A stretch of 64,000 nt of DNA, from NCBI GenBank assembly GCA_035471785.1, contig DATIPQ010000098.1:41446-105445 (forward strand). The letters run 5' to 3'. Below the pieces are notes generated by a model, which worked only from the letters and a program-made list of their open reading frames with translations, was not told the origin of the DNA and searched no databases. Shown here piece after piece: positions 4,406 to 61,556 of this stretch (the stretch's first letter is position 1; each line of letters starts with the position of its first letter). The translations under genes were made by a program, and so were the position numbers. Source of the stretch: Acidobacteriota bacterium. GTDB taxonomy: Bacteria; Acidobacteriota; UBA6911; RPQK01; DATIPO01.

Positions 4406-5053
4406 TTAACACCCCAGGCGGTTCATTTCCCTCTGGTAGGTATCCATCCATTGCTGGTGCGAGTCCTGCTCGCGAAGGTAGAAAGGCGAACCGATTCTGA
4501 CCAGGGCTTTGGAGAAGGGTTTCGGGATGCGCATCCGGTCCCAGGAACCCAGTTGCCAGTAGCGCTGGGGCTGGATGTGGAAGCAGACGATGGGACAGCC
4601 GCTTTTCCGGCTCAGGAGCAGCGGGCCGGGTTTGACCTTGTGGCGCGGTCCCCTGGGTCCGTCGATTGTGAAGGCCACGTCGCGTCCCTCTCGCAACCGC
4701 CGCTTGAGCTGCAGCAGAGCCCGCACGCCGCCTCGGGTGCTCGATCCGCGCGAGGTCGCGTAGCCGAAACTTTCGATGATGCGGGCGATGTACTCCCCGT
4801 CGAAATGCTCGCTGGTCATGACCACGATGCCGCGATTCCTCCAGAAGTAGGTGGCGACCGGGATCTGATCATGCCAGAAGGAAAGAATGGCGGGCTGATT
4901 CGCTTGCCTCAGACTCTGGTAGTTGTCCCAGCCTTCGACCTGGAAGCGCAGGGTGCGTCCGATGGCGCCGATGAGCAGACGTCCCAGGCGATAAGCCAAC
5001 CAGATCTGGGCTCGTTGCTTGAAGGTAAACCGCGGTGGCGCGCCTTTTTTCAC
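4406..5053 (-). CDS. DUF374 / lysophospholipid acyltransferase-like protein
   Basis: GTG start. FWHDQIPVAT...TIDGPRGPRHKVKPG resembles the LPLAT-like DUF374 family. Confidence 0.7.
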   Translation of the reverse strand: MKKGAPPRFTFKQRAQIWLAYRLGRLLIGAIGRTLRFQVEGWDNYQSLRQANQPAILSFWHDQIPVATYFWRNRGIVVMTSEHFDGEYIARIIESFGYATSRGSSTRGGVRALLQLKRRLREGRDVAFTIDGPRGPRHKVKPGPLLLSRKSGCPIVCFHIQPQRYWQLGSWDRMRIPKPFSKALVRIGSPFYLREQDSHQQWMDTYQREMNRLGC

Positions 5054-10867: not shown

Positions 10868-10961
<94 letters not shown>

Positions 10962-11089: not shown

Positions 11090-11797
11090 CTAGCGGACAA
11101 GGACGTCGACGTCGCGTTCCAGGCGGAAGCTGAGGAGGCGTTCCTTGCGCAGGTCGATCGTCTCGCCTTTGGTGAGCAGGACGGTGGCTCCGCCCGCTCC
11201 GCCGCCGATGGCCGCGCCGATGGCGGCTCCCTTGCCGCCGCCCGCGATCGCACCGATGATGGCGCCGATTCCGGCCGCCACGCCAACCTTCTTGGCGTCC
11301 TTGCCGGCCGATCCTTCAGCCTGAAACTCGACGGTATCGGTGACCAGGGTCTGGGGATCGTCCTCGATGTAAAGCCGGGTCAGCTCAAGGACCATGCGGG
11401 CGCGTCCTTTGACCTTGCCGGAGCTCTCCACGTCGATGAGACGGCCCTCAAGGCGGCTGCCCTTGGCGGCCACCAATTGTCCCTGCTCGTCGAAAAGATC
11501 GCGGTCGAGGATGGCTTCGAAGGTGTCGCCCGTCCGGTTTTCTTCGCTGCTCAGGTTCTCAGCCAGACGGATGGGGACGGGAGTTCCCTCAGGGATGACA
11601 TAGTTGCCCCGGCGAGGTCCTCTGACCACATCAGGGTCGCGATTGGGGTCGGTGCGACGGGGAGTGGAGGGGACGACTACCGGCCGATCCTGTTGCTGAG
11701 CCGCAAACTCGGGGGAGGCCGGATGTGCAACCAAGGCCACTCCGGTCATGCCGACCAGAAGAAAGATGATGGTGATGAGGGCAAGATGCTTTTTCAT
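11090..11797 (-). CDS. Secreted glycine-zipper protein
   Basis: Signal peptide, Pro/Arg-rich linker, and a C-terminal GxxxGxxxG-rich stretch (GIGAIIGAIAGGGKGAAIGAAIGGGAGG). Confidence 0.6.
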   Translation of the reverse strand: MKKHLALITIIFLLVGMTGVALVAHPASPEFAAQQQDRPVVVPSTPRRTDPNRDPDVVRGPRRGNYVIPEGTPVPIRLAENLSSEENRTGDTFEAILDRDLFDEQGQLVAAKGSRLEGRLIDVESSGKVKGRARMVLELTRLYIEDDPQTLVTDTVEFQAEGSAGKDAKKVGVAAGIGAIIGAIAGGGKGAAIGAAIGGGAGGATVLLTKGETIDLRKERLLSFRLERDVDVLVR

Positions 11798-11919: not shown

Positions 11920-13122
11920 CTATGGAGGGTGAACCCTGAAAGCGGTCTTGAGGACCTTGCTGCTGCCGGTGTTGAGGGCGCAGTGGATGGCCTTGCGGTA
12001 GTCTTCCAGGGCGTAGACGGCTCCCACAAATCCTTCCAGCTCCTGGCGCAGCTTGCCCACTTCGTCGATGGCCCGGGCGAAGAGAGGCAGATGGCAGGTA
12101 TAGCTCGAAGTCACCGTCAGTTCCTTGAACCAGATGGCCGTCCAATCGACGTTCTTGGGGATGCCGGGCATGCCCACCAGCATCACGGCGCCTCCCGTGT
12201 CGGTCAGACGCAAGGCGTCATCGATAGTGCGCGAAGAGCCGATGCAATCGAAACACAGGTCGGCTCCGCCCAGGAAAACAGGGCCGCCCAGTTCGGGCTG
12301 GAAAGAACGGGCCTGATAAATCTCGGCGATTTCGGAATAGAATCCGGACCCGGTGCCGATGACGATGTCGGCCCCCAGCCGGCGGGCTAATTCCTGCTGG
12401 TGCGGATGCTTGGCAACGACAGTGACGTGTGATTTGCAGCCCAGCGAGCGGATGGCGGCAAGGGTCAGGGCGCCCATGGTCCCGCAACCGATGACCAGAA
12501 TGCGCTTGTCGTCCTTGAGGGGGGCCCGGTTGGCGGCGTGGAGGGAGCAACTGAAAGGCTCGGCCAAAACGGCGATCTCGTCGGGAAGGTCGGCGGGGGC
12601 TGCATGAAGCTGCAGTTCATGGGCCACGAAGCTGTCGCTCCACCCTCCGCCGGTATCCTGACAGAAACCGGTTTGCAGACCGGCTCCGATCACCCCTTGG
12701 TCGATCTTGTGGCAGTAGATGTCGTTTCCGCCGAGGCAATAGCTGCAAGGCTGCTCGGGTTGGCGGACGCGACAGGTGAGCGGGGGCTGCAAAATGACGC
12801 GGTCTCCCGTCTTGAACCTGTCCACCTGGGCCCCGCATTCGATCACTTCGCCTACAACCTCGTGACCAAAGACGAAAGGCGAGGGCGTGAAAGGAGAGAA
12901 ATAGGCGCTGCCTTCAGCCGTCAGCGAAGCCAGGTCCGACCCGCAGATCCCGCTCAGCGAGGGGCGGACGCGCGTCCAACGGGGGGAGGGCAGAGGCTGG
13001 GGCTCGATGTCGACGTACTGCAAAGCCGCCCATCCCGAGGTGTAGAGGGACGGGAACCTGCGCCCCAGGTAGCGGGCCGTGAGATAACGAGGCACGCTCT
13101 TGACATAGCGGATGGCACGCAT
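11920..13122 (-). CDS. Zn-dependent alcohol dehydrogenase (MDR superfamily)
   Basis: GICGSDL...GHEVVGEV and GCGTMG Rossmann motifs. Start ATG 13122 is 3 nt after the stop of the HAD gene. Confidence 0.85.
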   Translation of the reverse strand: MRAIRYVKSVPRYLTARYLGRRFPSLYTSGWAALQYVDIEPQPLPSPRWTRVRPSLSGICGSDLASLTAEGSAYFSPFTPSPFVFGHEVVGEVIECGAQVDRFKTGDRVILQPPLTCRVRQPEQPCSYCLGGNDIYCHKIDQGVIGAGLQTGFCQDTGGGWSDSFVAHELQLHAAPADLPDEIAVLAEPFSCSLHAANRAPLKDDKRILVIGCGTMGALTLAAIRSLGCKSHVTVVAKHPHQQELARRLGADIVIGTGSGFYSEIAEIYQARSFQPELGGPVFLGGADLCFDCIGSSRTIDDALRLTDTGGAVMLVGMPGIPKNVDWTAIWFKELTVTSSYTCHLPLFARAIDEVGKLRQELEGFVGAVYALEDYRKAIHCALNTGSSKVLKTAFRVHPP

Positions 13123-13124
13123 AT

Positions 13125-13826
13125 TCACCGCTCCCCGGACTGCCCGACCGTCTCCTTCCACCGCAGGACGTCCCACTGGCGCTTCTCGGCCACCGCCTTG
13201 AGCCGTTTCCCAGGATTGACGACGGCCGCGTGCCCGACCTGGCTCAGCATGGGGACATCGTCCATGCTGTCAGCATACGCATAGCAGTCCTCCAGCTTCA
13301 ACGCATTGCGGCGGGCGAACTCGCGCAAGGCTTCAACCTTGGCGGCGTCGGTGATGGGGCCGAAGCTGAGTCGTCCGCTGTAGTGTCCGTTCCTTTCCTC
13401 TAGCTCGGCCGCGTAGGTCTCGTCGGCCTCCAGCCACTCGGCCAGAGGACGCAGCACCGCGGTCACGGAGCCGGTGACCAGTACCACGGCGTGTCCTTGC
13501 TGCTGGTGCCGTCGGATGCAGCGGCGGGCATCAGCATAGACGCTGGGACGCATGAATTCCTCGAAGTGCCATTGGGCCAGCTCTTCCAGTTCGGACACCG
13601 AAAAACGGGCATAGCTGCGGTAGAAGACCTCGTTGAAACGGCGGCGGCTCTTCAAGTCAAGCACAAAATAATAGGCCGCGGTGGGCAGGTAGGCCAACGC
13701 CCACAACCACTTCATCCAAGCCGGCATGGAAGCGGTACGCATGCGGGCGTAGTAGAGGACGATGTTGCCGCGGACCACGGTTCCATCGACATCGAAGAAA
13801 GCAGCGGCCGGTGAGCCTCGCTTCAC
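13125..13826 (-). CDS. HAD-IB family hydrolase (phosphoserine phosphatase-like)
   Basis: FFDVDGTV motif I. GTG start overlaps the stop of the upstream gene (GTGA). Confidence 0.8.
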   Translation of the reverse strand: MKRGSPAAAFFDVDGTVVRGNIVLYYARMRTASMPAWMKWLWALAYLPTAAYYFVLDLKSRRRFNEVFYRSYARFSVSELEELAQWHFEEFMRPSVYADARRCIRRHQQQGHAVVLVTGSVTAVLRPLAEWLEADETYAAELEERNGHYSGRLSFGPITDAAKVEALREFARRNALKLEDCYAYADSMDDVPMLSQVGHAAVVNPGKRLKAVAEKRQWDVLRWKETVGQSGER

Positions 13827-16800
13827 GGGCCAGCCTCTTGGGCCAGGCGCTGGACCGCTTGGCGGACGTCGGAAGCGATGCGCCGGTAGGTATCGCTGGC
13901 ACGGCCTCCGTTCTCACGGTAGGCGTTCATGGCGATGGGAGGCCCGAAATAGACCTCGACCTCGCCCGTGCGCGGGAGGAACGAGCCTTTGGGCATGGCC
14001 TGATAAGTACCCTTGATGTAGACGGGAATGATGGGGACGTCCAGCTCGAGTGCCATCAAACCCAGTCCCGGCTTGAAGCCCTGGATCTCGCCCGTTACGC
14101 TGCGCGTGCCCTCGGGAAAGATCAGGATCGGCTCGCCCGTTTCCAGGATCGACTTGACCAGCCTCAGTCCGGCCAGTGAGGTTTCTTCCCGCTCCAGGGG
14201 GATGACGTTGAGGAAGCTGCTGAAGAACCAACTCTTGAATCCGTTGTCGAAGAAGTAGTCGCGGGCGCCCACGCTGTGCAGCCGCTTGGCCTGGCGCGCG
14301 CCGCGAGCCTTCTTGAAGGCTGACAGTATGGCTCCGATGTCAAGGTGGCTGGAGTGGTTGGGAGCCACGATATAGGGCTTGTCCACGGGCAGATTTTCGG
14401 TGCCGTGCAGTGACAGGCGCAGGTAATAGCGGTAAATCAGGCTTAATCCCGACAGCGTCATTCCCAGACAGATGCGGTCGCGCAGAGGACGCTGGGAGAG
14501 CGGCAACGCCGAGCGGACGACGTTGGAGGGGCCCTTGCGCCCCTTGGGGCGGCGGGTTTCGACCTGCGACAGCACCTCTCCCACCGTCTGGATGGCGGAG
14601 GCCTGGTCGTCGGGAATGGTGATGCCGAAGTTGCTCTCCAGGAAGAGCAGCAATTCGATGGCCAGCAGCGAATCGAGCCCAAGGTCGGTGTAAAGATCGC
14701 TGGAGGGAGAAATCTCATGCTCCGGAAGGCCGGAGAGGCGGCTCAGTTCCTGGATGATGACCTCGCGGTCGCTGCCTTCAGCGCTTTTGCCCTCGCCGGA
14801 CGGCCGTTCTGAAGCAGCCTGTCCATCCAGCTTGCGGTCCAGCCAGCAGCGGATGGCCTGGCGGTCGAGTTCCCCGTCCTCGTTGCGGGGCAGGTGGCCG
14901 CTGTAAAGATGCATCGCCTGCAGCCGATGATAGCTGGGCAGCTCGCGGGCCAGGCTGCTCACTTCAAGCTGGATTTCGCGCTTCAGTCCGGCGCGGTCGG
15001 TATCTTCGTTGAGGTCTTCGCTGGGAACCACCACGGCATGGACTTCCTCGGTGAGGCCCGTCTTGATACCCGCCACGCAGATGTCGCGTATGGAGGGAAG
15101 CGCGCGGTAAATGGCCTCGAGGTCGATCGGGTAGACGTTCTTGCCGGCCCCCGTCACGATGACGTCTTTGATGCGTCCCGTGATGTAGACGTAGCCGTCG
15201 TTGTCGACCCAGCCCAGGTCTCCGGTATGGAACCACTGGTCGTGAATCACTTCGCGGGTGGCGGCTTCGTTCTTGTAATAGCCCTCCATCAGGCTAGGCG
15301 TCTTGACGATGATCTCGCCGATCCCTTCCTCGTCGGGATGAAAAAGGCGCAATTCCACTCCGGGAAGGGGCTTGCCGGCCGACTCGCGGCGCGAGCGCTT
15401 GAGCGGACTGACGGTCAGCACCGGAGCCGTCTCCGTCAACCCGTAGCCCTCGTAGATAGGAAATCCCATGGCGTGGTAGTCGTCGTAGAGTTCGCCTCCC
15501 AAGGCCGATCCCCCGCTGACGACGATGCGGATGTTGCCGCCGAACTCCTGGTGGATGCGAGAGAACAAGGCCTTGCCGATGTTGCGTCCGAAGCGCTTTT
15601 TGACCGTGCGGCTCAGTTGCTTTGAGGTAGCCACCCAGCTCGACTTGACTTTCGACTTGCTGGTCTTGAGGATGCGCCGCTCGATGTCGTCGCGCAGCAT
15701 GGCCAAAAAAGTGGGTACGCCAAGCAGGCAGGTGGTGCCGGTTTCGCGCATGGCCTCCAACAGGACGCGCGGCTTGAGCGAATGGGCATAGGAGATGGTG
15801 GCGCCGCCATAAATCGGCATGAGGAAGCCGCAGGAAAAGGCAAAGGCGTGGTAAAGGGGCAAAATGCACAGCAACTGGTCGGAATCGTAAATGGGCAGGA
15901 AGTGGTTGACGCCCAGCAGATTGTTGATGAAGTTGGAGTGGCTGTGCAGGGCTCCCCTGGGATTGACGATCGTTCCGCTGGTGAAGATGATGGAGGCGGG
16001 ATCGTCGGGTGCGATCTCGACCTTCTCTTCCAATTCGGGGCCGCCTTCTTCCCAACAGGTGCTGAGAGGAAAGCCGTCGACGCTGAAGGGCCGGCAGTCG
16101 TCGTTGATGTTGAGCAGCTTGCGGGGCTGCTGGGACTGCTCGTTTTCGTCGAACCCCCCGCGTTGCAGACGGCTGAAGCAGGACTCGGAGGCCAGAATGC
16201 AACGGGCTTCGGTGAAACGGGCCACTGACCAGGCCTCTTCATGCCAGGTCTGGGCGTCGATAGGCACCACGACCAGCCCGATGGAAACAGCGCCCAGATA
16301 AGTCATTCCCCATTCCGGCAAGTTCTCTGAAAAGAGTACGGCGCGGTCTCCCTTTGTCAGGCCGTAGCGCTGCAGGCGGCGGGCGATCTCACGGGATTTC
16401 TCTTCGACCTGGCGGTAGCTGAAGCGTTCCCACTGCTCGCCCCTCTTGATTTGCAGCATGGGCCGGTCGGGATAGCGTTCCACGGCCCGCCGCAAGAGGA
16501 AGGGAATGGTCAGCTCCTTGAGGGGCTCCAGCTCCCTGGGGTCGGCCACTTCCAGCGAACCGCCGCCTTCCACCTTGAGGATGAATTTCTTGACCCCCGG
16601 GATGTGCACGTTCTGCACGTAGTAACGCCAGTTGAGACGCGTTACGTCGAAATTGAACTCGACCTTCTCGTCCTCGGGCAGCTTGTGGTAGAGGCGCAGG
16701 GTGCTGTCGACCTGGAAACGGCAATCCAGGTTGAGATAGGGCTCGTAGATCTCTCCGTAGTAGTAGAGCTTTTCGTTGGCGATGCGGGTGGCCGCGATGC

Positions 16801-18169
16801 GGCGTTTGTATTTCTTGGCCACCACGTCGAAGACCGGCAACAGGTCCAGCGTCTTCTCGGCCCGTCTCAGCGGGGCGTTGCGCAGCTTGTAGCGGAAGCG
16901 GAAACGCTCGGGAGTCTGGTACTTGAGGCGCTTGATGGCGATAGGGCGGCCATCCCGGTCGAGCATCGGATTGCTCTCGAAAAAGGCGTGTATGAGGTCG
17001 TAAAGAGTCCCCAGGCGGATAGGATTCTCGAAGCCCGTGGCAACGTGGTAGATGCCCACCTCGCGCGGCGCTCCCTGTAGCGTGGGAAGCACCGCCAGCA
17101 AGGCGTTGACCACCATGTCGGCTGGAATGATGTCGAGGACCGCATCGGGGTTGAGGGGCAGGGTTTTCAGGCGTCCCTTGCCGATGGCGGCGATAAGCGG
17201 ATCGGCCATGCGCAGTCCGTCCAACCATCCGGGACTGGGTTCGGAAAGGCTGCTCTCGATCACCGAGGGTCGGACGATGGCGGTGGGCAAGTCTCCGCGC
17301 TCGCGCATCACCATCTGCTCGGCTAGAGCCTTGGTGTAGGTGTAGGTATCGTTCCAGCCACGCTGGCGGGCCCATTCCATACCGTCCTCGACCAGCTTGT
17401 CGCGCAGCCAGGAACGGCGCAGCCGTTCAACGATGTCGCGCCGCCGGCCCCTGGAAGATTTGCGGCCTTTCTTGCGGTTGCGCTCGACCAACTGCTTCAT
17501 CAGTTCGCGGCCGACTTCCTTCGACTGGGCCTGCTCTTCGATGGCCGCCACCCGAGACCTGATCTTGCTGATTTCCAGATCGAGGTCCTTGAAACCCCGC
17601 TGAGGAAAGTCGTCCTCGCTCTCGAAGGCCGAATGGTGCAGCGTTTCGGGGATGCTGGCGTTGGTGTTGCCGCACACGTAGGCGGTGGAAACATGCAGCA
17701 GTACCGCCTGGCGGCAGGACTTGGCGAAATGTGTCAGCCTCACGGCGCCGAAGACATTCAAATCCAGGGCCTCGTTGAGCGGGGCATCGAAGGACACCAC
17801 GGCCGCACTGTTGATGACGACGTCGACTTCGCCCCTGAGCCGCTCCAGCAAATCGGCTTCAATGCCCAGGTCGTCCTCGGAAATATCTCCGGCAACGGCC
17901 TCCAATTTGTCCTTGAGAAACTCTTCGATGCCATCCCCGTGGCGCGAGTAGAGGCGGTCGAAAGCGCTCGACTGAAAGAGTTCCTTCTGGATGCGCTGCT
18001 GGGCTGTGAGGGTTCCCCTTAACTGCTTCTTAGGACGGATCAAGAGGTAGATGCGGCGCACCTCGGGCGCCGACCAGAGAAGCTTTTCGACCAGCGCCTG
18101 ACCCAAAAACCCGGTCGATCCGGTAATGAAAAGGGTCTTGCCGCTGAGATAGTCCGAGATGGTTCCCAT
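13823..18169 (-). CDS. ElbD-like multidomain lipid enzyme (FAR reductase, fatty acyl-AMP ligase, ACP and AGPAT acyltransferase domains)
   Basis: N-terminal TGxxGxxG male-sterility/FAR NAD-binding domain. The central AMP-binding domain carries TSGTIVNPRG, GYGLTE and YHTGDLG motifs. A PP-binding domain carries LGLDSLLAIEL. The C-terminal PlsC domain carries NHSSHLD and FPEGTRS motifs. ATG 18169 is preferred over TTG 18199. Confidence 0.85.
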   Translation of the reverse strand: MGTISDYLSGKTLFITGSTGFLGQALVEKLLWSAPEVRRIYLLIRPKKQLRGTLTAQQRIQKELFQSSAFDRLYSRHGDGIEEFLKDKLEAVAGDISEDDLGIEADLLERLRGEVDVVINSAAVVSFDAPLNEALDLNVFGAVRLTHFAKSCRQAVLLHVSTAYVCGNTNASIPETLHHSAFESEDDFPQRGFKDLDLEISKIRSRVAAIEEQAQSKEVGRELMKQLVERNRKKGRKSSRGRRRDIVERLRRSWLRDKLVEDGMEWARQRGWNDTYTYTKALAEQMVMRERGDLPTAIVRPSVIESSLSEPSPGWLDGLRMADPLIAAIGKGRLKTLPLNPDAVLDIIPADMVVNALLAVLPTLQGAPREVGIYHVATGFENPIRLGTLYDLIHAFFESNPMLDRDGRPIAIKRLKYQTPERFRFRYKLRNAPLRRAEKTLDLLPVFDVVAKKYKRRIAATRIANEKLYYYGEIYEPYLNLDCRFQVDSTLRLYHKLPEDEKVEFNFDVTRLNWRYYVQNVHIPGVKKFILKVEGGGSLEVADPRELEPLKELTIPFLLRRAVERYPDRPMLQIKRGEQWERFSYRQVEEKSREIARRLQRYGLTKGDRAVLFSENLPEWGMTYLGAVSIGLVVVPIDAQTWHEEAWSVARFTEARCILASESCFSRLQRGGFDENEQSQQPRKLLNINDDCRPFSVDGFPLSTCWEEGGPELEEKVEIAPDDPASIIFTSGTIVNPRGALHSHSNFINNLLGVNHFLPIYDSDQLLCILPLYHAFAFSCGFLMPIYGGATISYAHSLKPRVLLEAMRETGTTCLLGVPTFLAMLRDDIERRILKTSKSKVKSSWVATSKQLSRTVKKRFGRNIGKALFSRIHQEFGGNIRIVVSGGSALGGELYDDYHAMGFPIYEGYGLTETAPVLTVSPLKRSRRESAGKPLPGVELRLFHPDEEGIGEIIVKTPSLMEGYYKNEAATREVIHDQWFHTGDLGWVDNDGYVYITGRIKDVIVTGAGKNVYPIDLEAIYRALPSIRDICVAGIKTGLTEEVHAVVVPSEDLNEDTDRAGLKREIQLEVSSLARELPSYHRLQAMHLYSGHLPRNEDGELDRQAIRCWLDRKLDGQAASERPSGEGKSAEGSDREVIIQELSRLSGLPEHEISPSSDLYTDLGLDSLLAIELLLFLESNFGITIPDDQASAIQTVGEVLSQVETRRPKGRKGPSNVVRSALPLSQRPLRDRICLGMTLSGLSLIYRYYLRLSLHGTENLPVDKPYIVAPNHSSHLDIGAILSAFKKARGARQAKRLHSVGARDYFFDNGFKSWFFSSFLNVIPLEREETSLAGLRLVKSILETGEPILIFPEGTRSVTGEIQGFKPGLGLMALELDVPIIPVYIKGTYQAMPKGSFLPRTGEVEVYFGPPIAMNAYRENGGRASDTYRRIASDVRQAVQRLAQEAGP

Positions 18170-18262
18170 AGTTGCCCGTCCCGCAGGACCAAAGGACAAA
18201 AATTGTAGCTCAAGAAATGGCCGCCGAGCAGCCGAGTCAAGGCGCCCGGCCCGAAACGGAAC

Positions 18263-19135
18263 CTATTCTAGCGGAACTACCACCCTTAAGGCAGCCCTCA
18301 TGGCTCGCGCTTCCAGCGGCGTTTCGCCGCAGATGTCGCCGTCGAACATCTTGCGCATGGGAGTTTCGGTTTCGATGCGCACGTGGGACGCGCGGTGGAC
18401 GCTGAAAGCTGGATGAGTTACGTGGGTGCCTCGATAGATGCGAGGGAAATTGAGCATCAAGTCAAGCTTCCCCACGGGGGCGATCACTACCACGTCGAGT
18501 TTGCCGTCCTCAAGCGAGGCCTGGGGAGCCATGAATTGCCCGCCGCCGCAATAGGGCGTGTTCTGGAGCAGAATCGAGGTGCAGTTCAGCTCGCGTTCTT
18601 CATCGTCCAGCCACATGCGGACGGAGATAGGCTTCATGCGTCCCAGGGCCTTGTAGACAGCCGCGAAAAAAGCCAGCGAACCTTTGAGCCGCGTCATGCG
18701 GTTGGTTTCTTCAGCCACGTGAGCCGGATAGCCGATGGCCGTCATGAGGATGAAATGGCGGTCCCGCTCCCAACCGATGTCGATGGCCTTGGTCCCTCCC
18801 TTCTCCAGCACCTCCAGAGCGCCTCCGACATTGTTGAAGGGCAACCCCAGACTCCGGGCCAGGTCGTTGCCGGTGCCCACCGGAATGAGGCCCAACTCGC
18901 AGTCGCTGCCCAACAGGCCGTTGACAGCCTCGCCGATCGTGCCGTCTCCCCCCATCACCACTACTCGCCCTTCTCCCTCAGCCACCAACTGATGCGCCAA
19001 TTGGGTGGCGTGGCCGGGCTTCTCGGTCGGCAGCAAGCGGTAGGACTGTCCACGGCCCTTGAGGAGTTTTTCCAAGCGCTGACGATGACGTTCGCTGCGG
19101 CCGCCGCCGGCAGTTGGATTATAGATGATCTTCAT
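18263..19135 (-). CDS. Lipid kinase (DAGK_cat / YegS-like)
   Basis: MKIIYNPTAGGG...GGDGT...GTGND catalytic motifs. Confidence 0.8.
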   Translation of the reverse strand: MKIIYNPTAGGGRSERHRQRLEKLLKGRGQSYRLLPTEKPGHATQLAHQLVAEGEGRVVVMGGDGTIGEAVNGLLGSDCELGLIPVGTGNDLARSLGLPFNNVGGALEVLEKGGTKAIDIGWERDRHFILMTAIGYPAHVAEETNRMTRLKGSLAFFAAVYKALGRMKPISVRMWLDDEERELNCTSILLQNTPYCGGGQFMAPQASLEDGKLDVVVIAPVGKLDLMLNFPRIYRGTHVTHPAFSVHRASHVRIETETPMRKMFDGDICGETPLEARAMRAALRVVVPLE

Positions 19136-19193: not shown

Positions 19194-20147
19194 ATGGCGA
19201 AGATGGCCGTTTTAGCGGGTGGAATCGGCGGGTCCAAGCTGCTGACTGGACTTTACGCTCAGCTTGAGGGGCGCGATCTGACCGTTGTCGGCAATACTGG
19301 CGACGACTTGCGGATACACGGGCTGCGGGTCTGTCCCGACCTCGACACCATCACCTACACGCTCACCGGATTGGTAGAGCCTGAAAGAGGCTGGGGGCGG
19401 GCCGGGGAGACTTTTCACTGCCTGCAAGAATTGTCGCGGCTGGGCGCCGACACCTGGTTCCAGCTTGGGGACCGCGATCTGGCCCTGCATCTGCAGCGCA
19501 CCCGCTGGCTGGCTGAGGGTCTGCCGCTAAGCCACGTGACTCAGCGCATCGCGCAGGCCCTCGGGCTTGGCTGCCGCCTCTTGCCCATGAGCGAAGACTA
19601 TCGTCCCACCTGCCTGGAAACCTCTCAGGGACGTTTGCATGTACAGGAATACTTCGTGCGGGAAGGAACGCGTCCTCGGGTCAAGCGGCTGATTTTTCCC
19701 GAGTCGAGGCCTCCTGCCGAGGGAGTCTCGAACGCCCTGCGCCAGGCCGAAGCCATTGTCATCGCGCCCAGTAACCCCTTCCTCAGCATTCAGCCTATCC
19801 TGGCGCTGGACGGCGTCCGGCGCTGCTTGCAGGAGAGGCGGCAGCGGGTCATGGTGGTGACGCCCGTGGTGGGAGGGAAGAGCCTCAAAGGACCCACCGC
19901 CAAGATGCTGAGCGAGTTGGGGCACCAGGTCACGGCCGGCGGCGTGGCCCGAATCTACCAGCCCCTGGCCCGCCATTTCATCCTCGATCAGAGGGATGCG
20001 GGTCTTAGGCGGCAAATTGAAGCGATGGGCTACAAAGTCCACTTGGCTGATACGGTTATGAACACAAGAGGCGAAAAGATAGCTCTGGCCCGAAGGGTGT
20101 TGGACATCTTTCAAGATCATCTTTCCACTCAAAGAGAATCCTCATGA
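19194..20147 (+). CDS. cofD: 2-phospho-L-lactate transferase
   Basis: LAGGIGGSKLL P-loop-like motif and CofD/FbiA-like length. ATGA overlap with cofC. Confidence 0.85.
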   Translation: MAKMAVLAGGIGGSKLLTGLYAQLEGRDLTVVGNTGDDLRIHGLRVCPDLDTITYTLTGLVEPERGWGRAGETFHCLQELSRLGADTWFQLGDRDLALHLQRTRWLAEGLPLSHVTQRIAQALGLGCRLLPMSEDYRPTCLETSQGRLHVQEYFVREGTRPRVKRLIFPESRPPAEGVSNALRQAEAIVIAPSNPFLSIQPILALDGVRRCLQERRQRVMVVTPVVGGKSLKGPTAKMLSELGHQVTAGGVARIYQPLARHFILDQRDAGLRRQIEAMGYKVHLADTVMNTRGEKIALARRVLDIFQDHLSTQRESS

Positions 20148-20800
20148 CTGTGGTGCTGCTGCCGGTCAAGGGCCTGGACTGCTGCAAACAGCGGCTGGCA
20201 CCGGTGTTGTCGGCGGTTCAGCGGCGGGAGCTGATGTGGACCCTCTACCGGCGCACAGCGGACGTTTTGCAGCGCGCATTGAAACACCCTGAGGGAGCGG
20301 TTGTCGAGGTGGCGGTGGTGACGCCCGACGTCCAGATCGCTTCCCATGCCTCGTCCCTGGGGTGGACGGTATTGCAGGAAGAGGGCACTCTTTGCGAGAG
20401 CCGCTCCGTCGACTGGGCTTGCGGGAAGCTTTTAGCTTCCGGCGCCGCCAGCGTCCTGCGTCTTCCTTGCGACCTGCCGCTGTTGCGGCCCGAGGACATC
20501 TCGGCTTTGTGCAAGGCCGAGGGCGAGGCGGACTGCCTGTTGGTCCCCTCCCGCTCAGGAAACGGAACCAATGCGCTGCTGCGCACGCCGCCCGATGCCT
20601 TCCCTTCCCGCTTCGGCCCCGACAGCCGCAAGCTGCACCAAGCCGAGGCGCGCCGTCGGGGAATTGACCTGCGCATCCTGGAGCTGCCCTCGGTGGCCCT
20701 TGATCTGGACACGCGGGACGACCTGAGGTACTTCCTGGGCGCCGCCCGACCGCCACATCGCGTCCTCGATCTGCTGTCTTGCTGGGAGTTGAAACCGTGA
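20144..20800 (+). CDS. cofC: 2-phospho-L-lactate guanylyltransferase
   Basis: LLPVKGLDCCKQRL...FGPDS...RRG matches the CofC/FbiD MobA-like fold. Confidence 0.8.
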   Translation: MTVVLLPVKGLDCCKQRLAPVLSAVQRRELMWTLYRRTADVLQRALKHPEGAVVEVAVVTPDVQIASHASSLGWTVLQEEGTLCESRSVDWACGKLLASGAASVLRLPCDLPLLRPEDISALCKAEGEADCLLVPSRSGNGTNALLRTPPDAFPSRFGPDSRKLHQAEARRRGIDLRILELPSVALDLDTRDDLRYFLGAARPPHRVLDLLSCWELKP

Positions 20801-21555
20801 ACGATCTGCAAATCCTGCCCATAAGGCTGGAAGAGGATATCCAACCTGGCGACGACCTGACAGAGTTGCTGGCTCAAGCCCTGTACAAAAGGGCGTTGTC
20901 GCTGCGCGACGAGGACGTGCTGGTGGTCTGTCACAAGATCATCTCCAAGGCCGAGGGGAAAATCGTGGCCTTGGAGGGCGTCCGCCCTTCGGCGCTGGCC
21001 AAGTCCTGGGCCGCCCGCTTCGACCGGGACGCGCGCCTGATCGAAGTGGTGCTCAGCCAAGCGCGGCGCATCGTGCGCATGGAAGAAGGCCTCGTTATCG
21101 CCGAGACGATCCATGGATTCGTGGCGGCCAACTGCGGGGTGGACACCTCTAACGCGCCTCCCGATTGTGCCGTGCTGTTGCCCTCGGCACCCGATGTTTC
21201 GGCCAAACGTTTGGCCGAAGGCTTGGGCCGGCGGTTTGGCTGCCGCCTTTCCTGCATCGTCTCCGACACCTTCGGGCGACCCTGGAGAATGGGCTTGCTG
21301 GAAGTGGCGATAGGTGTCTGGGGCTTCGCTCCCCTCATCGACTTGCGAGGAGAGCCTGACCGCGCGGGCAGGGAGATGCGGTCGAGCATTGTGGCGCTGG
21401 CTGATCAAGCGGCGGCGGCGGCGGGTCTGGTTATGAAGAAGGACGCAGGCATTCCCGCCGTGCTCATCCGCGGACTCGAACTGCCGGGCCCACGCAGAAA
21501 CAACCGCAGTGGAAAAGATTTGCTGCGCCCAGCCGGACAAGACCTGTTCAGGTAG
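20797..21555 (+). CDS. cofE: Coenzyme F420-0:L-glutamate ligase
   Basis: ILPIRLEEDIQPGDDL...VVCHKIISKAEG is CofE-like. GTG start overlaps the cofC stop (GTGA). Confidence 0.8.
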   Translation: MNDLQILPIRLEEDIQPGDDLTELLAQALYKRALSLRDEDVLVVCHKIISKAEGKIVALEGVRPSALAKSWAARFDRDARLIEVVLSQARRIVRMEEGLVIAETIHGFVAANCGVDTSNAPPDCAVLLPSAPDVSAKRLAEGLGRRFGCRLSCIVSDTFGRPWRMGLLEVAIGVWGFAPLIDLRGEPDRAGREMRSSIVALADQAAAAAGLVMKKDAGIPAVLIRGLELPGPRRNNRSGKDLLRPAGQDLFR

Positions 21556-21601: not shown

Positions 21602-21700
21602 GGAGGTACGTCTCGTCTGGTGACGGGCCTGGTCTTCAAAACCAGTCGAGCCGCGTCGAGAGGCGTGGCTGGTGGGTTCGATTCCCATGTACCTCCGCCA
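21602..21700 (+). tRNA. selC: tRNA-Sec (selenocysteine tRNA, anticodon UCA)
   Basis: 8-bp acceptor stem GGAGGUAC/GUACCUCC with G discriminator and CCA. Anticodon stem CUGGU/ACCAG with loop CUUCAAA (UCA). Long variable arm. 5-bp T stem (8/5 architecture). 99 nt. Confidence 0.85.
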
Positions 21701-58231: not shown

Positions 58232-59332
58232 CTAAATGATTGAAGCCGCTTGATTTAGGCGATTCAGCGAGATCAACGGCGGCTGGCCGCTTCGCTGGGC
58301 CTTCTGAAAGCTCTCACGGTCGCTCAGGCCGCGCCAGCCTTCGGCGATGAGGACTTGGGCCAAGGCTCCGCCCAGCGATTCTCCCGGGCCCAGCAGCACG
58401 AAATGGTCGGGATTGTATTCCAGGGCCGCCACCCGCACGGCGGCGCTGAAATCGAAGGGGCGAAGCACTTGTTCCTCCAGGGTGTAGAGGGAGAGGGCCT
58501 CGGCCAAGGTCTGCATAGGCTTCCACTGAGCGCCCCGCCCGTCGATGGCGGGGGTGTGGGGCTGATGCCACTCCAGGTCGTTGAGTTTTCGCCGGGCGAA
58601 GCGGGAGAGAGGCTCCATCAGGGGGGTGTGGAAGGCGCTGTGGTAGGCGAGCTGAAGGGGGAATTGGCGGCCGTTGCGGGTGACCGGGGGCAGCTTTTCA
58701 CTCATGGCCTCCAGTCCTGACGGAGTGCCGCCCAGGACCGCATAGCCTCCCAGGCGGATCGACAATCCGGCCCAACAGGCGCTCTCGGACGGCGGCTCTC
58801 CTTGAGCCGCGAGGGCCTGCGCGTCGTCGTCGCTGACCGAGCGGGCCAACTCCAACACCTTCTCCAGGCTCCCGCGCCGGGGGCGCCAGTCGTGGTCTTC
58901 CACCAGCGGATAGATGATTTGTCCGCCACGGACGTTGCCGCGCTGCTGCAAGCCCATTTCATTGACCAGTCGAAAGGCCTCGGCGAAACCGAGGGCGCCG
59001 CAGAGATAGAGGGCGCTGTACCATCCCATCGAGTTGCCCACCACGGCCACCACTTCGTGATCGGGATTGAGGAGGGCGGCATCGGCGGCCGTGCAGGTGA
59101 AGATGAGCGCCGATGCGTTCTCGCCGGGCAGGTGAAGGGCGGAGCTGAAGCGTTGGGCGGCGTCCAGTTCGCTGACGGTGGGCTGGCTTCGCCGACGGCG
59201 CATTTCGTCGGCCTCTCCCACCAGCCGCTCTCGCTCTGAAAAGCGCGGATGTTCCTGAAAACGGCTCAGGTAGCCCAACTCGCTCTTGCCGTAGGTCCCC
59301 CGTCCGGGGGCCACCAGCACGATCCTAGCCAC
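58232..59332 (-). CDS. FabD-like acyltransferase (malonyl-CoA:ACP transacylase superfamily)
   Basis: GTG start. VAPGRGTYG oxyanion-region analogue and GNSMGWYSAL (cf. FabD GHSLGEYSAL). Confidence 0.6.
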   Translation of the reverse strand: MARIVLVAPGRGTYGKSELGYLSRFQEHPRFSERERLVGEADEMRRRRSQPTVSELDAAQRFSSALHLPGENASALIFTCTAADAALLNPDHEVVAVVGNSMGWYSALYLCGALGFAEAFRLVNEMGLQQRGNVRGGQIIYPLVEDHDWRPRRGSLEKVLELARSVSDDDAQALAAQGEPPSESACWAGLSIRLGGYAVLGGTPSGLEAMSEKLPPVTRNGRQFPLQLAYHSAFHTPLMEPLSRFARRKLNDLEWHQPHTPAIDGRGAQWKPMQTLAEALSLYTLEEQVLRPFDFSAAVRVAALEYNPDHFVLLGPGESLGGALAQVLIAEGWRGLSDRESFQKAQRSGQPPLISLNRLNQAASII

Positions 59333-61556
59333 GCAGAACCTCCCATCTTTGCCGTACGGCTTGAGCGATGCTTTGCCGCGAGGGGAGCACGTATTCCCAG
59401 GCCGTCCCCAGGGGGATATAAGTGTCCTCTCCGCAAACTCGCGTCAGATGGGGCATTTCGTCCTGCAGGGCCTCGCACAGCAGGGCGGCGATTTCTTCCG
59501 ACAGTCCGCCGGTTCGGCGTGATTCGTCCACCAGGATGACGCTTTTTCGTCCTCGTGCGGCGTCGACGATCGCCTGGCGATTGAGCGGCGTCAGGAAATG
59601 CAGTTCCAGGATGGCAAATTCGATGCTCTGCCGGGAAAGGTCGTGCTGAGCTTGTCGGCTCAGGTAGCATCCGTTGGCATAGCTGATAACCAGAATCTCG
59701 GCCTCCTGCCGGCCGTGAAAGCTGACGTGGCCGAAGTCGAGTGTTTCCTGAGGAGCCGGGTAGGGAAAGAGCCAGTCGTCGTCCCCGGTTAGGTCCTTGG
59801 CCATGTAAAGGGCGATGGGCTCCAGGAAGAGCACGACGGCGCCGCATTCAAGCGCCAGGCTGACGGCACAGCGCATGGCGCGTACAGCATCGGGCCCGTT
59901 GCTGGCGGTGACGATGATGATGCCCGGAATCTCGCGCAGCGAAGCGAATCCGTTGTCGTTGTGGAAGTGTCCTCCGAACCCCTTCTGGTAGGCGAAGGAG
60001 GCGATGCGCACCACCATGGGATTGCGGAACTGGCCCTGAGAGAAGAACTGCAGCGAGCAGGCCTCTCCCCTCAACTGGTCAACGGCGTTGTAGACATAGG
60101 CCAGATATTGAATTTCGGCGATGGGCAGCAGGCCTATTTGTCCGGCGCCGATAGCCAGTCCCAGGATGGCCTGCTCGTCGAGCAGGGTGTTGAAGACCCG
60201 CCCCACGCCAAAGCGCTCGTAAAGCTCGGCGGTGACGTTGTAAACGCCGCCCTTGCGCGCCACGTCTTCCCCGAAAACGGTAATGCGCCGGTCGCTGAGC
60301 ATGAGGTCCTGCAGCCCCCAGTTGATGAGTTGGGCCATGTGACGCGGCTTGGAGTCCTCGGGAAGTCCTTTGCTGAAATGGCTGCGGCGCGTCGGCCGGT
60401 CGGCGCTGACGGGGCTGGGCAGGCGCGGCGGGGTCTCGGGCAGGAGGGGAGCCATCACCGAGGCCGCGCTGCTGTGGCGATCCCGGCGCGAGGCTTCACG
60501 CCCGGCGGCGCGCACCTGTTCGGCTATGGAATCGTAAAGGTCGAGGACTTCTCCCGGCGAGAGCACCCCCCGCTCGATCAATCCCAAAGCCGTTTGGATG
60601 AGCGGGTCGAGGGCTTCCTGGGCCTCGATTTCTTCCCGCTTTTTGTAAGACAGCTCGATGTCGGTGCCGGCATGGCCCAAAAGGCGCACGGTGCGCAGGT
60701 GAAGGAAGACCGGCCGCCGCGTCCTGCGGCAATAGGCCACCGCCTCCTCAATCTCGCGGTAGCTTTTGAAGATGTCGAGGGCGTCGGACTTGTAGTAGGT
60801 CAGTCCCGTGCGATGACGGTAGTTTTTGTCGACCCATTCCCCCGGCGTCCGCACCGAGATGCCGATGCCGTTGTCTTCGCAGACCAGCAGCAAGGGAACC
60901 GGCAAGCGCTGGAAATCGGCCCAGGAGGCCGAGTTGAGGGCTCCCAAAGCGGTGGAGTGGTTGACCGAAGCGTCTCCGAAAGTGCAGATCGCGATGGCGT
61001 CGCGGGGAACTCCTCCGCAACCCATCAGGTCGAGACGGCGCCGCCGGTCCATGAAAAAGGCGTAGCCTACCGCCTTGGGCAGATGAGAGGCGATGGTGCT
61101 GGTCTGGGGAGGAATGTTGAGGCCAAGGCTGCCCCAGACCTTGTGGCGTCCGCCCGAGATGGGGTCCTGCCTGGAAGCGCACAGGCCCAGGCAAGTGTCG
61201 AATATGGGGGTTTCTCCGGCCACTTGACGGGCCCTGGCCAGGTAGAATCCGCCGCTGCGGTAATGCAGGAAGGCCGTATCGGTGGGACTCGTAAGCTGTC
61301 CCAGCATGGCGTTGCCTTCGTGTCCCGCCGAGCCGATGGTGTAGAAGCTCTTGCCCTCAGCCTTCAGTTCGCGGGCGACGTAGTCGAGCCAGCGGCTGGT
61401 GATCTGGCACTCGAGAAGCTCCACCGCGGCTGCAACGGTCAGCCGGGAGTTCCTCACCAACAGGTCGTGGGGAAGAAAAGAGACCCTTTTGAAGGCAGCT
61501 TGGCCTACGCGGGTACGGAAGTTCTCATCGACGATCTGAACGCGGTTGATCGACAT
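59325..61556 (-). CDS. 2-oxoacid dehydrogenase E1 component, fused alpha and beta subunits (TPP-dependent)
   Basis: 743 aa. The N-terminal half is the E1-alpha TPP-binding region (GDASVNHS...EDNGIGIS). The C-terminal half is transketolase-like E1-beta. Confidence 0.85.
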   Translation of the reverse strand: MSINRVQIVDENFRTRVGQAAFKRVSFLPHDLLVRNSRLTVAAAVELLECQITSRWLDYVARELKAEGKSFYTIGSAGHEGNAMLGQLTSPTDTAFLHYRSGGFYLARARQVAGETPIFDTCLGLCASRQDPISGGRHKVWGSLGLNIPPQTSTIASHLPKAVGYAFFMDRRRRLDLMGCGGVPRDAIAICTFGDASVNHSTALGALNSASWADFQRLPVPLLLVCEDNGIGISVRTPGEWVDKNYRHRTGLTYYKSDALDIFKSYREIEEAVAYCRRTRRPVFLHLRTVRLLGHAGTDIELSYKKREEIEAQEALDPLIQTALGLIERGVLSPGEVLDLYDSIAEQVRAAGREASRRDRHSSAASVMAPLLPETPPRLPSPVSADRPTRRSHFSKGLPEDSKPRHMAQLINWGLQDLMLSDRRITVFGEDVARKGGVYNVTAELYERFGVGRVFNTLLDEQAILGLAIGAGQIGLLPIAEIQYLAYVYNAVDQLRGEACSLQFFSQGQFRNPMVVRIASFAYQKGFGGHFHNDNGFASLREIPGIIIVTASNGPDAVRAMRCAVSLALECGAVVLFLEPIALYMAKDLTGDDDWLFPYPAPQETLDFGHVSFHGRQEAEILVISYANGCYLSRQAQHDLSRQSIEFAILELHFLTPLNRQAIVDAARGRKSVILVDESRRTGGLSEEIAALLCEALQDEMPHLTRVCGEDTYIPLGTAWEYVLPSRQSIAQAVRQRWEVLRG

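Follow-up and report, generated by a model that had tools for sequence, protein, structure and literature searches.

A four-gene operon around an ElbD homologue in an uncultured acidobacterium: a candidate ether-lipid locus

ElbD systems described to date and the acidobacterial operon

Myxococcus xanthus ElbD (MXAN_1528, UniProt Q1DC43) belongs to the elbA-E cluster of Lorenzen et al. 2014, taken here from the summary given in PMC9131029. Disruption of elbD strongly reduced alkyl and vinyl ether lipids and inactivation of elbE resulted in fewer ether lipids, and in vitro evidence was obtained for the ACS and ACP activities of ElbD while its FAR and acyltransferase activities were not detected in vitro (PMC9131029). 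Aerobic bacteria such as Myxococcus make alkyl ether lipids without AGPS, and the reading of lipid biomarkers depends in part on which bacteria and genes are behind the ether lipids of soils and sediments.

ElbD homologues in Acidobacteria have already been published (Sinninghe Damste 2018, as cited elsewhere). DAG kinases and acyltransferases adjoin elbD in clusters of sponge-symbiont Acidobacteriota (SD6) and Poribacteria, many of which keep elbD and elbB only, and the text of that 2026 preprint makes no mention of a Zn-ADH or Lar_N partner (bioRxiv 10.64898/2026.06.23.733905). The locus described here comes from the same phylum as SD6 but from another acidobacterial lineage, its source being an uncultured MAG whose closest relatives are all likewise uncultured MAGs.

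The whole stretch of DNA analysed, referred to as the window, is 64 kb long. An operon of four co-directional genes lies on its minus strand around an ElbD homologue, and all four genes were found with the boundaries given in the original prediction. The features of the locus were as follows.

11920-19135, minus strand: the module, in the 5' to 3' order kinase, ElbD-like fusion, HAD, Zn-ADH
18263..19135, minus strand: predicted soluble DgkB/YegS-family lipid kinase, 290 aa, first gene of the module
13823..18169, minus strand: ElbD-like four-domain fusion, 1448 aa from its ATG, assigned by Pfam order and full-length alignment
17102..18127, minus strand: FAR Rossmann part (NAD_binding_4), with TGSTGFLG, STAY and YTYTK (YxxxK) conserved family-wide
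16574..16831, minus strand: FAR C-terminal 'Sterile' domain (PF03015, E = 1e-12, 48.4 bits against a cutoff of 35.4)
14858..16495, minus strand: ANL-superfamily acyl-activating domain (AMP-binding E = 4e-71, weak AMP-binding_C)
14570..14761, minus strand: acyl carrier protein domain (PP-binding E = 5e-12) with the invariant DSL phosphopantetheine-attachment serine
14012..14416, minus strand: AGPAT/GNPAT-type acyltransferase domain (PF01553, E = 2e-25)
13125..13826, minus strand: predicted ElbB-type HAD-IB phosphatase, 233 aa, its start overlapping the fusion stop
11920..13122, minus strand: predicted medium-chain Zn-dependent dehydrogenase of the polyol/secondary-alcohol type (Zn-ADH), 400 aa, last gene, ADH_N and ADH_zinc_N

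The GTGA junction claimed earlier, in which the fusion stop overlaps the HAD start, was confirmed in the sequence, while the junction between the HAD and Zn-ADH genes reads TGA-at-ATG, with a 2-nt spacer rather than the 3 nt first given. A 63-nt gap between the kinase and the fusion is obtained only from an upstream TTG at 18199, a start that would lengthen the fusion to 1458 aa from the 1448 aa quoted before; from the fusion ATG the gap is 93 nt. The GC content of the locus is that of its flanks, 0.61-0.635.

The operon resembles the M. xanthus elbA-E cluster in the four-domain order of ElbD, in the HAD (ElbB) partner and in the intact FAR, ACP and acyltransferase motifs. It differs in that the HAD gene is downstream of ElbD, not upstream, and in the partners: where the myxobacterial cluster has the short-chain reductases ElbA/ElbE and ElbC (Lar_N), the window has a Zn-dependent MDR dehydrogenase and a DgkB-like kinase. 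ElbC (Lar_N) and ElbE had no tblastn match anywhere in the 64-kb window, a point against ether-lipid synthesis by the operon given the effect of elbE inactivation in M. xanthus. The kinase is absent from the myxobacterial cluster as described in PMC9131029, in line with the original prediction, yet it is conserved beside the ElbD clade to which the window protein belongs.

Domains and motifs of the encoded proteins

The fusion is 100% identical to NCBI HSR69068.1 ('AMP-binding protein [Acidobacteriota bacterium]'). The predicted fusion of FAR, adenylating, ACP and acyltransferase domains was borne out by the Pfam scan, and the claimed ElbD-like architecture agrees with the FAR-ACS-ACP-acyltransferase order described for M. 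xanthus ElbD (PMC9131029). Numbered on the 1458-aa ORF, the Pfam domains were NAD_binding_4 (residues 25-366, E = 5e-71), Sterile (457-542), AMP-binding (569-975), AMP-binding_C (1012-1114, weak and under the cutoff), PP-binding (1147-1210) and Acyltransferase (1262-1396). With NAD_binding_4 and Sterile the fusion has both domains of the Pfam 'Male sterility' (fatty acyl reductase) family, and their pairing is a mark of eukaryote-type alcohol-forming FARs. The motifs by which the original prediction was to be judged, the ACP serine in LGLDSL, NHSSHLD (HX4D) and FPEGTR, are present and conserved, as are the acyltransferase motifs GARDYFF and VPIIP. Both the window protein and the 18 family members compared carry the FAR (GxxGxxG, S...YxxxK), DSL, HX4D and FPEGTR motifs.

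In tblastn searches the fusion aligned end to end, over more than 1200 aa and with 30-33% identity, with ElbD of myxobacterial-type loci. The references for this type were L020 (Anaeromyxobacter), L021, L023, L151, L154 and L163, with M. xanthus ElbD represented by its description only. Domain order, full-length homology, the FAR, ACP and acyltransferase motifs and the association with a HAD gene support placing the fusion in the ElbD family.

Within the acyl-activating domain, motifs A5 (YGLTE), A7 (TGD) and A8 (GRxKD) are intact, the A3 P-loop is degenerate (TSGTIVNPRG) and the catalytic lysine of A10 is replaced by glutamate (LPRNEDGELDR). These last two changes set the window protein apart from myxobacterial-type ElbD and run through the whole of its ElbD clade (at least 53%), whereas A3 (TSGTTGxPKG) and the A10 lysine are kept in myxobacterial and some planctomycete ElbD sequences, the A10 region of the myxobacterial type reading LPKTATRKVKR. 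With the lysine absent and the P-loop degenerate, acyl loading may not run as in Myxococcus, and the clade-wide loss of the adenylation lysine is a caution against transferring Myxococcus biochemistry to acidobacterial homologues, including when 'elbD hits' serve as metagenome markers. The FAAL label that the original prediction gave the domain, a fatty acyl-AMP ligase that passes acyl-adenylate to a carrier protein instead of CoA and bears a specific insertion, is at most provisional. The best NCBIfam matches of the domain were long-chain acyl-CoA ligase models, and the FAAL structure 3pbk gave a weak partial match only.

The HAD protein scored 147.8 bits against the HAD-IB model TIGR01490 (cutoff 98.3), and DVDGT (DxDxT) and DSMDD ((G/S)DxxxD) were seen in its translation. 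It is 37% identical (E = 5e-38) to the protein in the ElbB position of L163, a locus with the canonical order Epimerase (ElbA), HAD (ElbB), Lar_N (ElbC position), ElbD, Epimerase (ElbE) that is also found in Anaeromyxobacter L020. HAD homologues were present in 22 of the 34 full-length ElbD loci compared. Since HAD and FAR are fused in related loci (types B and C), with both FAR-HAD and HAD-FAR fusions occurring, the phosphatase would have to work closely with the reductase.

The kinase carries DAGK_cat (E = 3e-33) and YegS_C (E = 1e-36), reaches 170 bits against TIGR00147 (cutoff 118.65) and contains GGDGT and GTGND, a combination that places it with the YegS/Rv2252/BmrU (DgkB-like) kinases. 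Its nearest solved structure is Staphylococcus aureus DgkB (PDB 2qv7; 118 bits, E = 4e-33), with which it shares the DAGK_cat and YegS_C two-domain fold family; what sets it apart is that its gene is tied to that of an ElbD homologue, a feature specific to the lineages of the module.

The nearest solved structures to the Zn-ADH are an alcohol dehydrogenase, ketose reductase, butanediol DH, idonate 5-DH and Tdh. Its catalytic zinc ligands (Cys60, His87-Glu88, Glu188), the structural cysteines C117/C126/C129/C137 and the GCGTMG motif (G212xG214xxG217) are invariant in the family, and this set of zinc ligands, four-Cys lobe and GxGxxG points to the polyol-dehydrogenase branch. The Zn-ADH reached no NCBIfam equivalog cutoff, the best being Tdh at 111 bits against a cutoff of 380, and it is nearer to polyol/secondary-alcohol dehydrogenases than to aldehyde reductases (Ahr, 60 bits), with which the PDB matches agree.

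A proposed glycerolipid pathway

The interpretation of the locus as a prime candidate for ether-lipid biosynthesis was partly supported: ElbD and ElbB homology argue for it, but its novelty is less than was implied because acidobacterial ElbD and elbD-adjacent DAG kinases had been reported already. Judged by its sequence, the locus is a useful but not a new ether-lipid candidate, as similar loci are known in Acidobacteriota. Our reading, of moderate confidence, is that of a chromosomal operon, inherited vertically, that serves an AGPS-free ElbD-type glycerolipid pathway, the likeliest product of which would be a 1-O-alkyl (ether) glycerolipid.

In such a pathway the carrier domain of the central enzyme would receive a fatty acyl group, a reaction of the acyl-activating domain that has in vitro proof for M. 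xanthus ElbD only (PMC9131029). The N-terminal FAR would reduce part of the carrier-bound acyl to fatty aldehyde or alcohol with NAD(P)H, and the C-terminal HX4D acyltransferase would acylate a backbone at the glycerol-phosphate or DHAP level. The ElbB-type HAD-IB phosphatase may dephosphorylate an intermediate, either a lipid or the backbone. On the model of ElbE, the short-chain reductase of myxobacteria, the Zn-ADH could carry out NAD(P)H redox at a secondary alcohol or ketone, probably glycerol C2. The DgkB-like kinase would re-phosphorylate neutral alkyl(acyl)glycerol, which could then pass by way of CDP-diacylglycerol into phospholipids. Against the scheme, the kinase and the phosphatase of the operon would seem to undo each other's work if they shared a substrate.

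The scheme has likenesses to the eukaryotic peroxisomal pathway (FAR1, GNPAT, AGPS and acyl/alkyl-DHAP reductase; general knowledge and PMC9131029), including a FAR-type reductase, a DHAP/G3P acyltransferase, a C2 ketone reductase and dephosphorylation of the product ahead of head-group addition. The window module, however, has no AGPS (FAD_binding_4 / FAD-oxidase_C) gene, its reductase candidate is an MDR zinc enzyme rather than an SDR, and its activities are fused in one polypeptide with a carrier protein.

An unlikely alternative is that the operon serves the synthesis or remodelling of lipids with no ether bond, either ester lipids or neutral ones (fatty alcohols, wax esters, acylglycerols), in an Aas-like salvage where free fatty acids are activated on the built-in carrier and lysolipids are re-acylated, the kinase recycles and the phosphatase makes diacylglycerol, and the FAR gives alcohols for wax-type storage lipids. 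The Aas model PRK08633 (acyl-[ACP]--phospholipid O-acyltransferase) was the second-best NCBIfam match of the fusion, at 215 bits against a model cutoff of 1221. E. coli Aas (2-acyl-GPE acyltransferase / acyl-ACP synthetase) likewise joins an ANL domain to a PlsC-type acyltransferase that uses ACP-bound acyl, but it has the reverse domain order, a free ACP and no FAR domain. The kinase is nearest to a bona fide DAG kinase, elbD homologues occur in Pontiella where ether lipids were not detected (PMC11868695), and ether-bond formation by ElbD itself is still a proposal (PMC9131029), all of which are consistent with salvage. Against it, the sole genetic data on the four-domain architecture tie it to alkyl ether lipids (PMC9131029), the module has no wax synthase/DGAT gene, and the recurring secondary-alcohol-type dehydrogenase and LarA-like ElbC are not readily explained by simple salvage.

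Recurrence of the gene set beside ElbD

The comparison loci, of which 34 are full-length, were gathered by ElbD similarity and are in many cases related to each other, and counts of co-occurrence given here therefore do not stand for independent events. The order kinase, ElbD, HAD, Zn-ADH was found in L001, L002, L006, L008 and L166, and with an added Lar_N gene (LarA-like ElbC) in L165 (Gemmatimonadota) and L167. A reordered version (AT, ElbD, HAD, Zn-ADH, kinase) was found in a Planctomycetales MAG (L022), while the Poribacteria loci L010-L016 have ElbD and then HAD. Of the 14 loci that make up the at least 53% clade, 11 have a kinase homologue immediately upstream of ElbD, and the junctions of the module are overlapping or almost abutting in the window and in its relatives. 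Zn-ADH homologues with 46-61% identity adjoin ElbD/HAD in Acidobacteriota, Gemmatimonadota and Planctomycetales. Taken together, this gene order suggests firmly that the kinase, HAD and Zn-ADH genes are not chance neighbours of ElbD.

Among the 34 loci the Zn-ADH was present in 12 and ElbE/ElbA in 6, with both together in none, and the Zn-ADH may therefore replace ElbE/ElbA. ElbE was confined to the myxobacterial-type loci among those compared and ElbC was present in the relatives L007, L165 and L167. It is conceivable, though we regard it as unlikely, that kinase, ElbD, ElbB and Zn-ADH, with or without the LarA-like ElbC, constitute a distinct, non-myxobacterial and AGPS-independent ether-lipid pathway. 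The MDR Zn-ADH would have displaced the SDR ElbE, the DgkB-like kinase would feed the neutral ether product to phospholipid synthesis, and the acyl-activating domain, its catalytic lysine and P-loop glycines lost, would no longer adenylate and might instead, for example, dock acyl-CoA/acyl-ACP or act as a scaffold. If so, the redox partners Zn-ADH and the LarA-like protein, which could transiently oxidise C2, would mark the ether-forming chemistry. Comparison of the loci, more than the window locus by itself, offers testable candidates for the missing steps, including the ElbB phosphatase, the polyol-type zinc dehydrogenase, the LarA-like ElbC and the DgkB-like kinase.

It appears distinctly improbable that the functional unit is ElbD and ElbB only, with the kinase and Zn-ADH as housekeeping neighbours that have stayed in place near the origin through inherited synteny. 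The whole neighbourhood from cofDCE to trmE (cofDCE, CN_hydrolase, rnpA, yidC, trmE) is syntenic among acidobacterial loci, so gene order there is conserved whatever the function, and within the at least 53% clade the kinase is missing from 3 loci and the Zn-ADH from 6. However, the kinase and Zn-ADH accompany ElbD into other phyla in changed order or orientation (L022, L025, L010, L165), and the Zn-ADH is also found beside the split FAR-HAD version. A weak terminator-like hairpin lies inside the 93-nt kinase-elbD gap of the window, but terminator-like matches in the region were not in excess (9 observed against 7.6 expected from shuffling), and in L003 and L007 the kinase gene and the start of elbD overlap.

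Least probable of all, and very doubtful, is the stronger proposal of the original prediction, by which the locus would supply the ether-forming step specifically for brGDGTs or membrane-spanning lipids of iso-diabolic acid. Nothing in the 64-kb window connects it to either chemistry, with no Tes/Mss-like radical-SAM, AGPS-like or PlsA/Ger-like domains among the ORFs scanned. The cultured brGDGT producer S. usitatus is without ElbD (PMC10087280), and the Tes and Ger route to brGDGTs is now favoured (PMC10087280, PMC13023045). In S. usitatus, brGDGT synthesis goes with the joint presence of Tes and Ger homologues, and in Ca. Koribacter versatilis Tes by itself gives tetraesters (PMC13023045). 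In its favour, ElbD of Acidobacteria SD4 has been put forward as converting ester to ether bonds en route to brGDGTs (PMC10087280, PMC13023045), and a fused branched-chain-type E1 dehydrogenase gene is located at 59325-61556 of the window.

Organization and family assignment of the ElbD-like operon

Four genes running in the same direction on the minus strand lie between positions 11920 and 19135 of the window, and the original prediction of a four-gene locus around an ElbD-like fusion was correct. An identical protein, HSR69068.1 at NCBI, is annotated just as 'AMP-binding protein [Acidobacteriota bacterium]'.

Genes of the operon and domains of the fusion protein
18263-19135, minus strand, lipid kinase of 290 aa (DAGK_cat + YegS_C), above the TIGR00147 cutoff, upstream of the fusion
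13823-18169, minus strand, ElbD-like fusion of 1448 aa, central ORF, start ATG at 18169
13125-13826, minus strand, HAD-IB hydrolase, above the TIGR01490 cutoff, first gene downstream of the fusion
11920-13122, minus strand, zinc-type medium-chain dehydrogenase (Zn-ADH) of 400 aa, second gene downstream of the fusion
Fusion domain 1, NAD_binding_4, Pfam E = 5e-71
Fusion domain 2, Sterile, Pfam E = 1e-12
Fusion domain 3, AMP-binding, Pfam E = 4e-71, plus a weak C-terminal subdomain
Fusion domain 4, PP-binding, Pfam E = 5e-12
Fusion domain 5 (last), Acyltransferase, Pfam E = 2e-25

The predicted GTGA junction was recovered as the overlap of the fusion stop with the HAD start. Two predicted distances required correction, with 2 nt instead of 3 nt from the HAD stop to the Zn-ADH start and 93 nt instead of 63 nt from the kinase stop to the fusion ATG; the 63 nt figure fits only an upstream TTG, which clashes with the length of 1448 aa given in the same prediction. 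The region had no excess of terminators over the shuffled background in a promoter and terminator scan. The carrier-protein serine motif chosen beforehand as a check (LGLDSL) and the acyltransferase motifs HX4D (NHSSHLD) and FPEGTR were found in the fusion and were invariant among its relatives.

ElbD of Myxococcus xanthus has been described in a review as having a FAR1-like domain at the N terminus and, after it, acyl-CoA-synthetase, ACP and AGPAT-like domains (PMC9131029). Its operon is presented there as including the NAD-dependent epimerase-family genes elbA and elbE, the HAD gene elbB and elbC, which has no assigned function; alkyl ether lipids need elbD, and the ElbD ACS and ACP domains load a fatty acid in vitro. 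The window protein has this domain architecture in common with M. xanthus ElbD and its FAR, ACP and acyltransferase motifs are intact.

In place of M. xanthus ElbD, the comparison used myxobacterial-type loci recovered by the genome and metagenome scans. The canonical gene order was found in several of these, among them L020 (an Anaeromyxobacter MAG), L021, L023, L151, L154 and L163, being Epimerase, HAD, Lar_N, the four-domain protein and Epimerase by Pfam in L163. ElbD of these loci shared 30-33% identity with the window ElbD over more than 1200 aligned residues, and the window HAD protein matched the L163 protein in the ElbB position (37% identity, E = 5e-38). Many full-length relatives at 28-59% identity were recovered in a search of representative proteins with fusion residues 1-1190. 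One scan pattern, YEGYGLTE, occurs in acyl-CoA ligases generally, and approximately 60 of the at least 80 genome-scan loci were irrelevant stand-alone ligases. The canonical-order loci, the full-length ElbD alignments and the HAD match give good support for placing the fusion in the ElbD family and the HAD as its ElbB partner. The predicted ElbD-like architecture was borne out by both the Pfam domain order and end-to-end alignment to ElbD from canonical loci. ElbC, ElbE and ElbA gave no tblastn match within the 64-kb window.

The acyl-activating domain

Motifs A5 (YGLTE), A7 (TGD) and A8 (GRxKD) are kept in the acyl-activating domain of the fusion, while the A3 P-loop reads TSGTIVNPRG versus TSGTTGxPKG. 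The A10 lysine of ANL superfamily enzymes is needed for the adenylation half-reaction. At this position the window protein has a glutamate (LPRNEDGELDR, versus LPKTATRKVKR in myxobacterial-type sequences), a call that rests on the family alignment to myxobacterial-type sequences, the PDB alignments stopping short of the A10 region. The lysine was missing in all 13 aligned members of the clade with at least 54% identity, as well as in one poribacterial and one latescibacterial homologue, and was retained in planctomycete and myxobacterial-type homologues. Its otherwise strong conservation suggests that the domain is functional in some sense. As myxobacterial-type ElbD keeps the A10 lysine while the window ElbD combines a glutamate with an altered P-loop, the in vitro loading activity of M. 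xanthus ElbD cannot be assumed for the window protein, and the FAAL label given to this domain in the original prediction is only tentative.

Conservation of the module and a proposed pathway

Gene neighborhoods were compared in 34 loci with full-length ElbD, which were compiled among the matches listed and are not independent samples. Of the 14 loci that make up the clade with at least 53% identity to the window ElbD (Acidobacteriota plus one Gemmatimonadota MAG), 11 had the kinase directly upstream of elbD, where it overlaps or abuts the start of that gene in L003, L007 and L165, and eight had HAD and Zn-ADH genes downstream. The Gemmatimonadota locus L165 and L167 each featured five genes with overlapping junctions (kinase, ElbD, HAD, Zn-ADH and Lar_N), and L166 had the same four-gene set as the window. 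Outside the clade, a Planctomycetales MAG (L022) had the order AT, ElbD, HAD, Zn-ADH and kinase. The kinase was divergent from elbD in a Latescibacterota MAG (L025), and the Zn-ADH gene was next to a Lar_N gene on the opposite strand in a poribacterial locus (L010).

Two further cluster types were found in soil metagenomes. Type B (e.g. L117:7998-14691; L094-L099, L120, L153) has a FAR-HAD fusion ORF followed by genes for the same Zn-ADH family, an ElbC-like Lar_N protein, a 214-aa unknown protein and an acyltransferase of the PlsC type that stands alone; these 'split' clusters lack acyl-activating and ACP domains. In Type C (e.g. L116:7245-18301; approximately 40 loci within L101-L150), a HAD-FAR fusion is accompanied by another NAD_binding_4 reductase, a PS_pyruv_trans-like protein, two acyl-CoA ligases, an enoyl-CoA hydratase and a DAGK-type kinase; this is a larger putative lipid-modifying cluster that reuses FAR, HAD and kinase parts. 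HAD-reductase fusions exist in both orders.

The best structural match of the kinase was the Staphylococcus aureus soluble diacylglycerol kinase DgkB (118 bits), with much less likeness to YegS or sphingosine kinases in the PDB comparison. The Zn-ADH belongs to a large family (5893 matches at E <= 1e-30, proteins of approximately 400 aa, in the same phyla as ElbD), and 14 of its best 120 matches lie on contigs of exactly the same length as those of entries among the best 120 ElbD matches. All zinc ligands are invariant in this family, as is the Rossmann motif, and a family-specific QTGxCxDTGGG segment is present. The missing acidic residue after strand beta-2 (AKHxHQ) hints at use of NADP(H), and among solved structures the closest relatives are dehydrogenases of polyols and secondary alcohols rather than aldehyde reductases. 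Zn-ADH was present in 12 of the 34 loci and ElbE/ElbA-type reductases in six, never together, from which we infer non-orthologous displacement of ElbE by Zn-ADH, in a sample that is small and non-independent.

In myxobacterial-type loci (L163:6340-7953, L020, L021, L151, L157, L164), the elbC-position gene encodes a LarA-like protein with a Lar_N (lactate racemase N-terminal) domain (E = 6e-38). Members of this family also come after Zn-ADH in L165 and L167, and immediately after ElbD in L007, a locus that lacks Zn-ADH. A 235-aa protein encoded past the Zn-ADH gene (11090-11797, minus strand) had only sub-threshold TrbI and Gly-zipper matches, and L001 and L002 likewise have a similar-sized, equally poorly annotated gene 3' of Zn-ADH. 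The protein could belong to the module as a fifth, membrane-associated component or be just a syntenic neighbor.

The window locus belongs to an already reported kind of cluster. A 2018 study (Sinninghe Damste) had already reported ElbD homologues and elb clusters for Acidobacteria SD4, which later papers repeatedly cite as unproven candidates (PMC10087280, PMC11868695), and a 2026 preprint (bioRxiv 10.64898/2026.06.23.733905) describes elb-like clusters from Acidobacteriota (SD6) and Poribacteria that live with sponges. Many of the preprint clusters keep elbD and elbB only, with adjoining DAG kinases and acyltransferases, and neither its text nor its supplement mentions a Zn-ADH or Lar_N partner. 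What the locus adds is modest: a conserved set of partners (Zn-ADH, kinase and Lar_N) and the lost adenylation lysine. Pontiella has elbD homologues, yet ether lipids were undetected there (PMC11868695).

An ElbD-type ether-lipid pathway is, by a little, the probable role of the locus. The FAR domain would reduce part of the carrier-bound acyl, and the acyltransferase domain would move another part onto a glycerol-phosphate or DHAP-level backbone. ElbB would remove phosphate from an intermediate, Zn-ADH, in place of ElbE, would carry out a C2 alcohol/ketone redox step, and the DgkB-like kinase would re-phosphorylate the neutral alkyl(acyl)glycerol so that it could enter phospholipid synthesis via CDP-DAG. 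This scheme assigns no enzyme to formation of the ether bond. Salvage of esters or neutral lipids, with no ether formed, is unlikely but should be kept in mind. Still less plausible is that the kinase and Zn-ADH are accidental neighbors around an ElbD-ElbB core. General origin-proximal synteny is strong in the acidobacterial clade of the window, but both genes recur in different phyla and gene orders, and this recurrence, with the HAD-reductase fusions made both ways, argues for functional coupling of the module genes rather than adjacency by inheritance.

Genomic context and the brGDGT question

The operon is located in origin-proximal housekeeping DNA. Beyond cofE are genes for a DeoC-family aldolase and CN_hydrolase, then rnpA, yidC, jag, trmE and next parA, gidB and gidA, with glmS, metH, suf genes and others farther out in the window.

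Features flanking the operon
19197-21555, plus strand, cofD, cofC and cofE (F420 biosynthesis), divergent, approximately 60 nt from the kinase start
21602-21700, plus strand, tRNA-Sec, anticodon TCA (Rfam 75 bits and ARAGORN), just after cofE
10870-10961, minus strand, tRNA-Ser (GCU), approximately 1 kb past the operon end, after the gene of the 235-aa protein
4406-5053, minus strand, DUF374 protein; another DUF374 gene is near elbD in L004

MnmG identities to relatives (80%, 71%) parallel those of ElbD (84%, 65%), which fits vertical inheritance of the module. A horizontally acquired island was rejected on the strength of the housekeeping flanks and of GC content, which is uniform over the locus and its surroundings. 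The tRNA-Sec gene implies that this acidobacterium is likely to use selenoproteins. Loci L001, L002, L004, L009 and L167 also have the cof genes flanking elbD, in L004 and L167 together with an F420_oxidored (Fno-like) gene. We rejected a functional link to the F420 genes, as the adjacency is confined to a single acidobacterial clade, where it follows overall synteny and is probably inherited; a redox-cofactor link to FAR or ADH is still conceivable.

The special relevance to brGDGT chemistry that had been proposed drew no support from the locus, and a specific brGDGT role is very improbable: no radical-SAM Tes/Mss-like, AGPS-like or PlsA/Ger-like domain was found among the window ORFs scanned, the cultured brGDGT producer S. 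usitatus is without ElbD (PMC10087280), and the Tes and Ger route is now favored (PMC10087280, PMC13023045). In L003 a 587-aa FAD_binding_4 + FAD-oxidase_C protein (L003:15484-17247, minus strand) is encoded approximately 3 kb downstream of elbD, adjoining a short-chain dehydrogenase; this architecture is that of alkyl-DHAP synthase but also of D-lactate/glycolate oxidases, and the window yielded no gene of this kind. A 743-aa protein encoded at 59325-61556 on the minus strand of the window is a 2-oxoacid dehydrogenase component with E1 alpha and beta fused (E1_dh + Transket_pyr + Transketolase_C), which could supply iso-fatty-acid primers if its substrates are branched-chain oxoacids.
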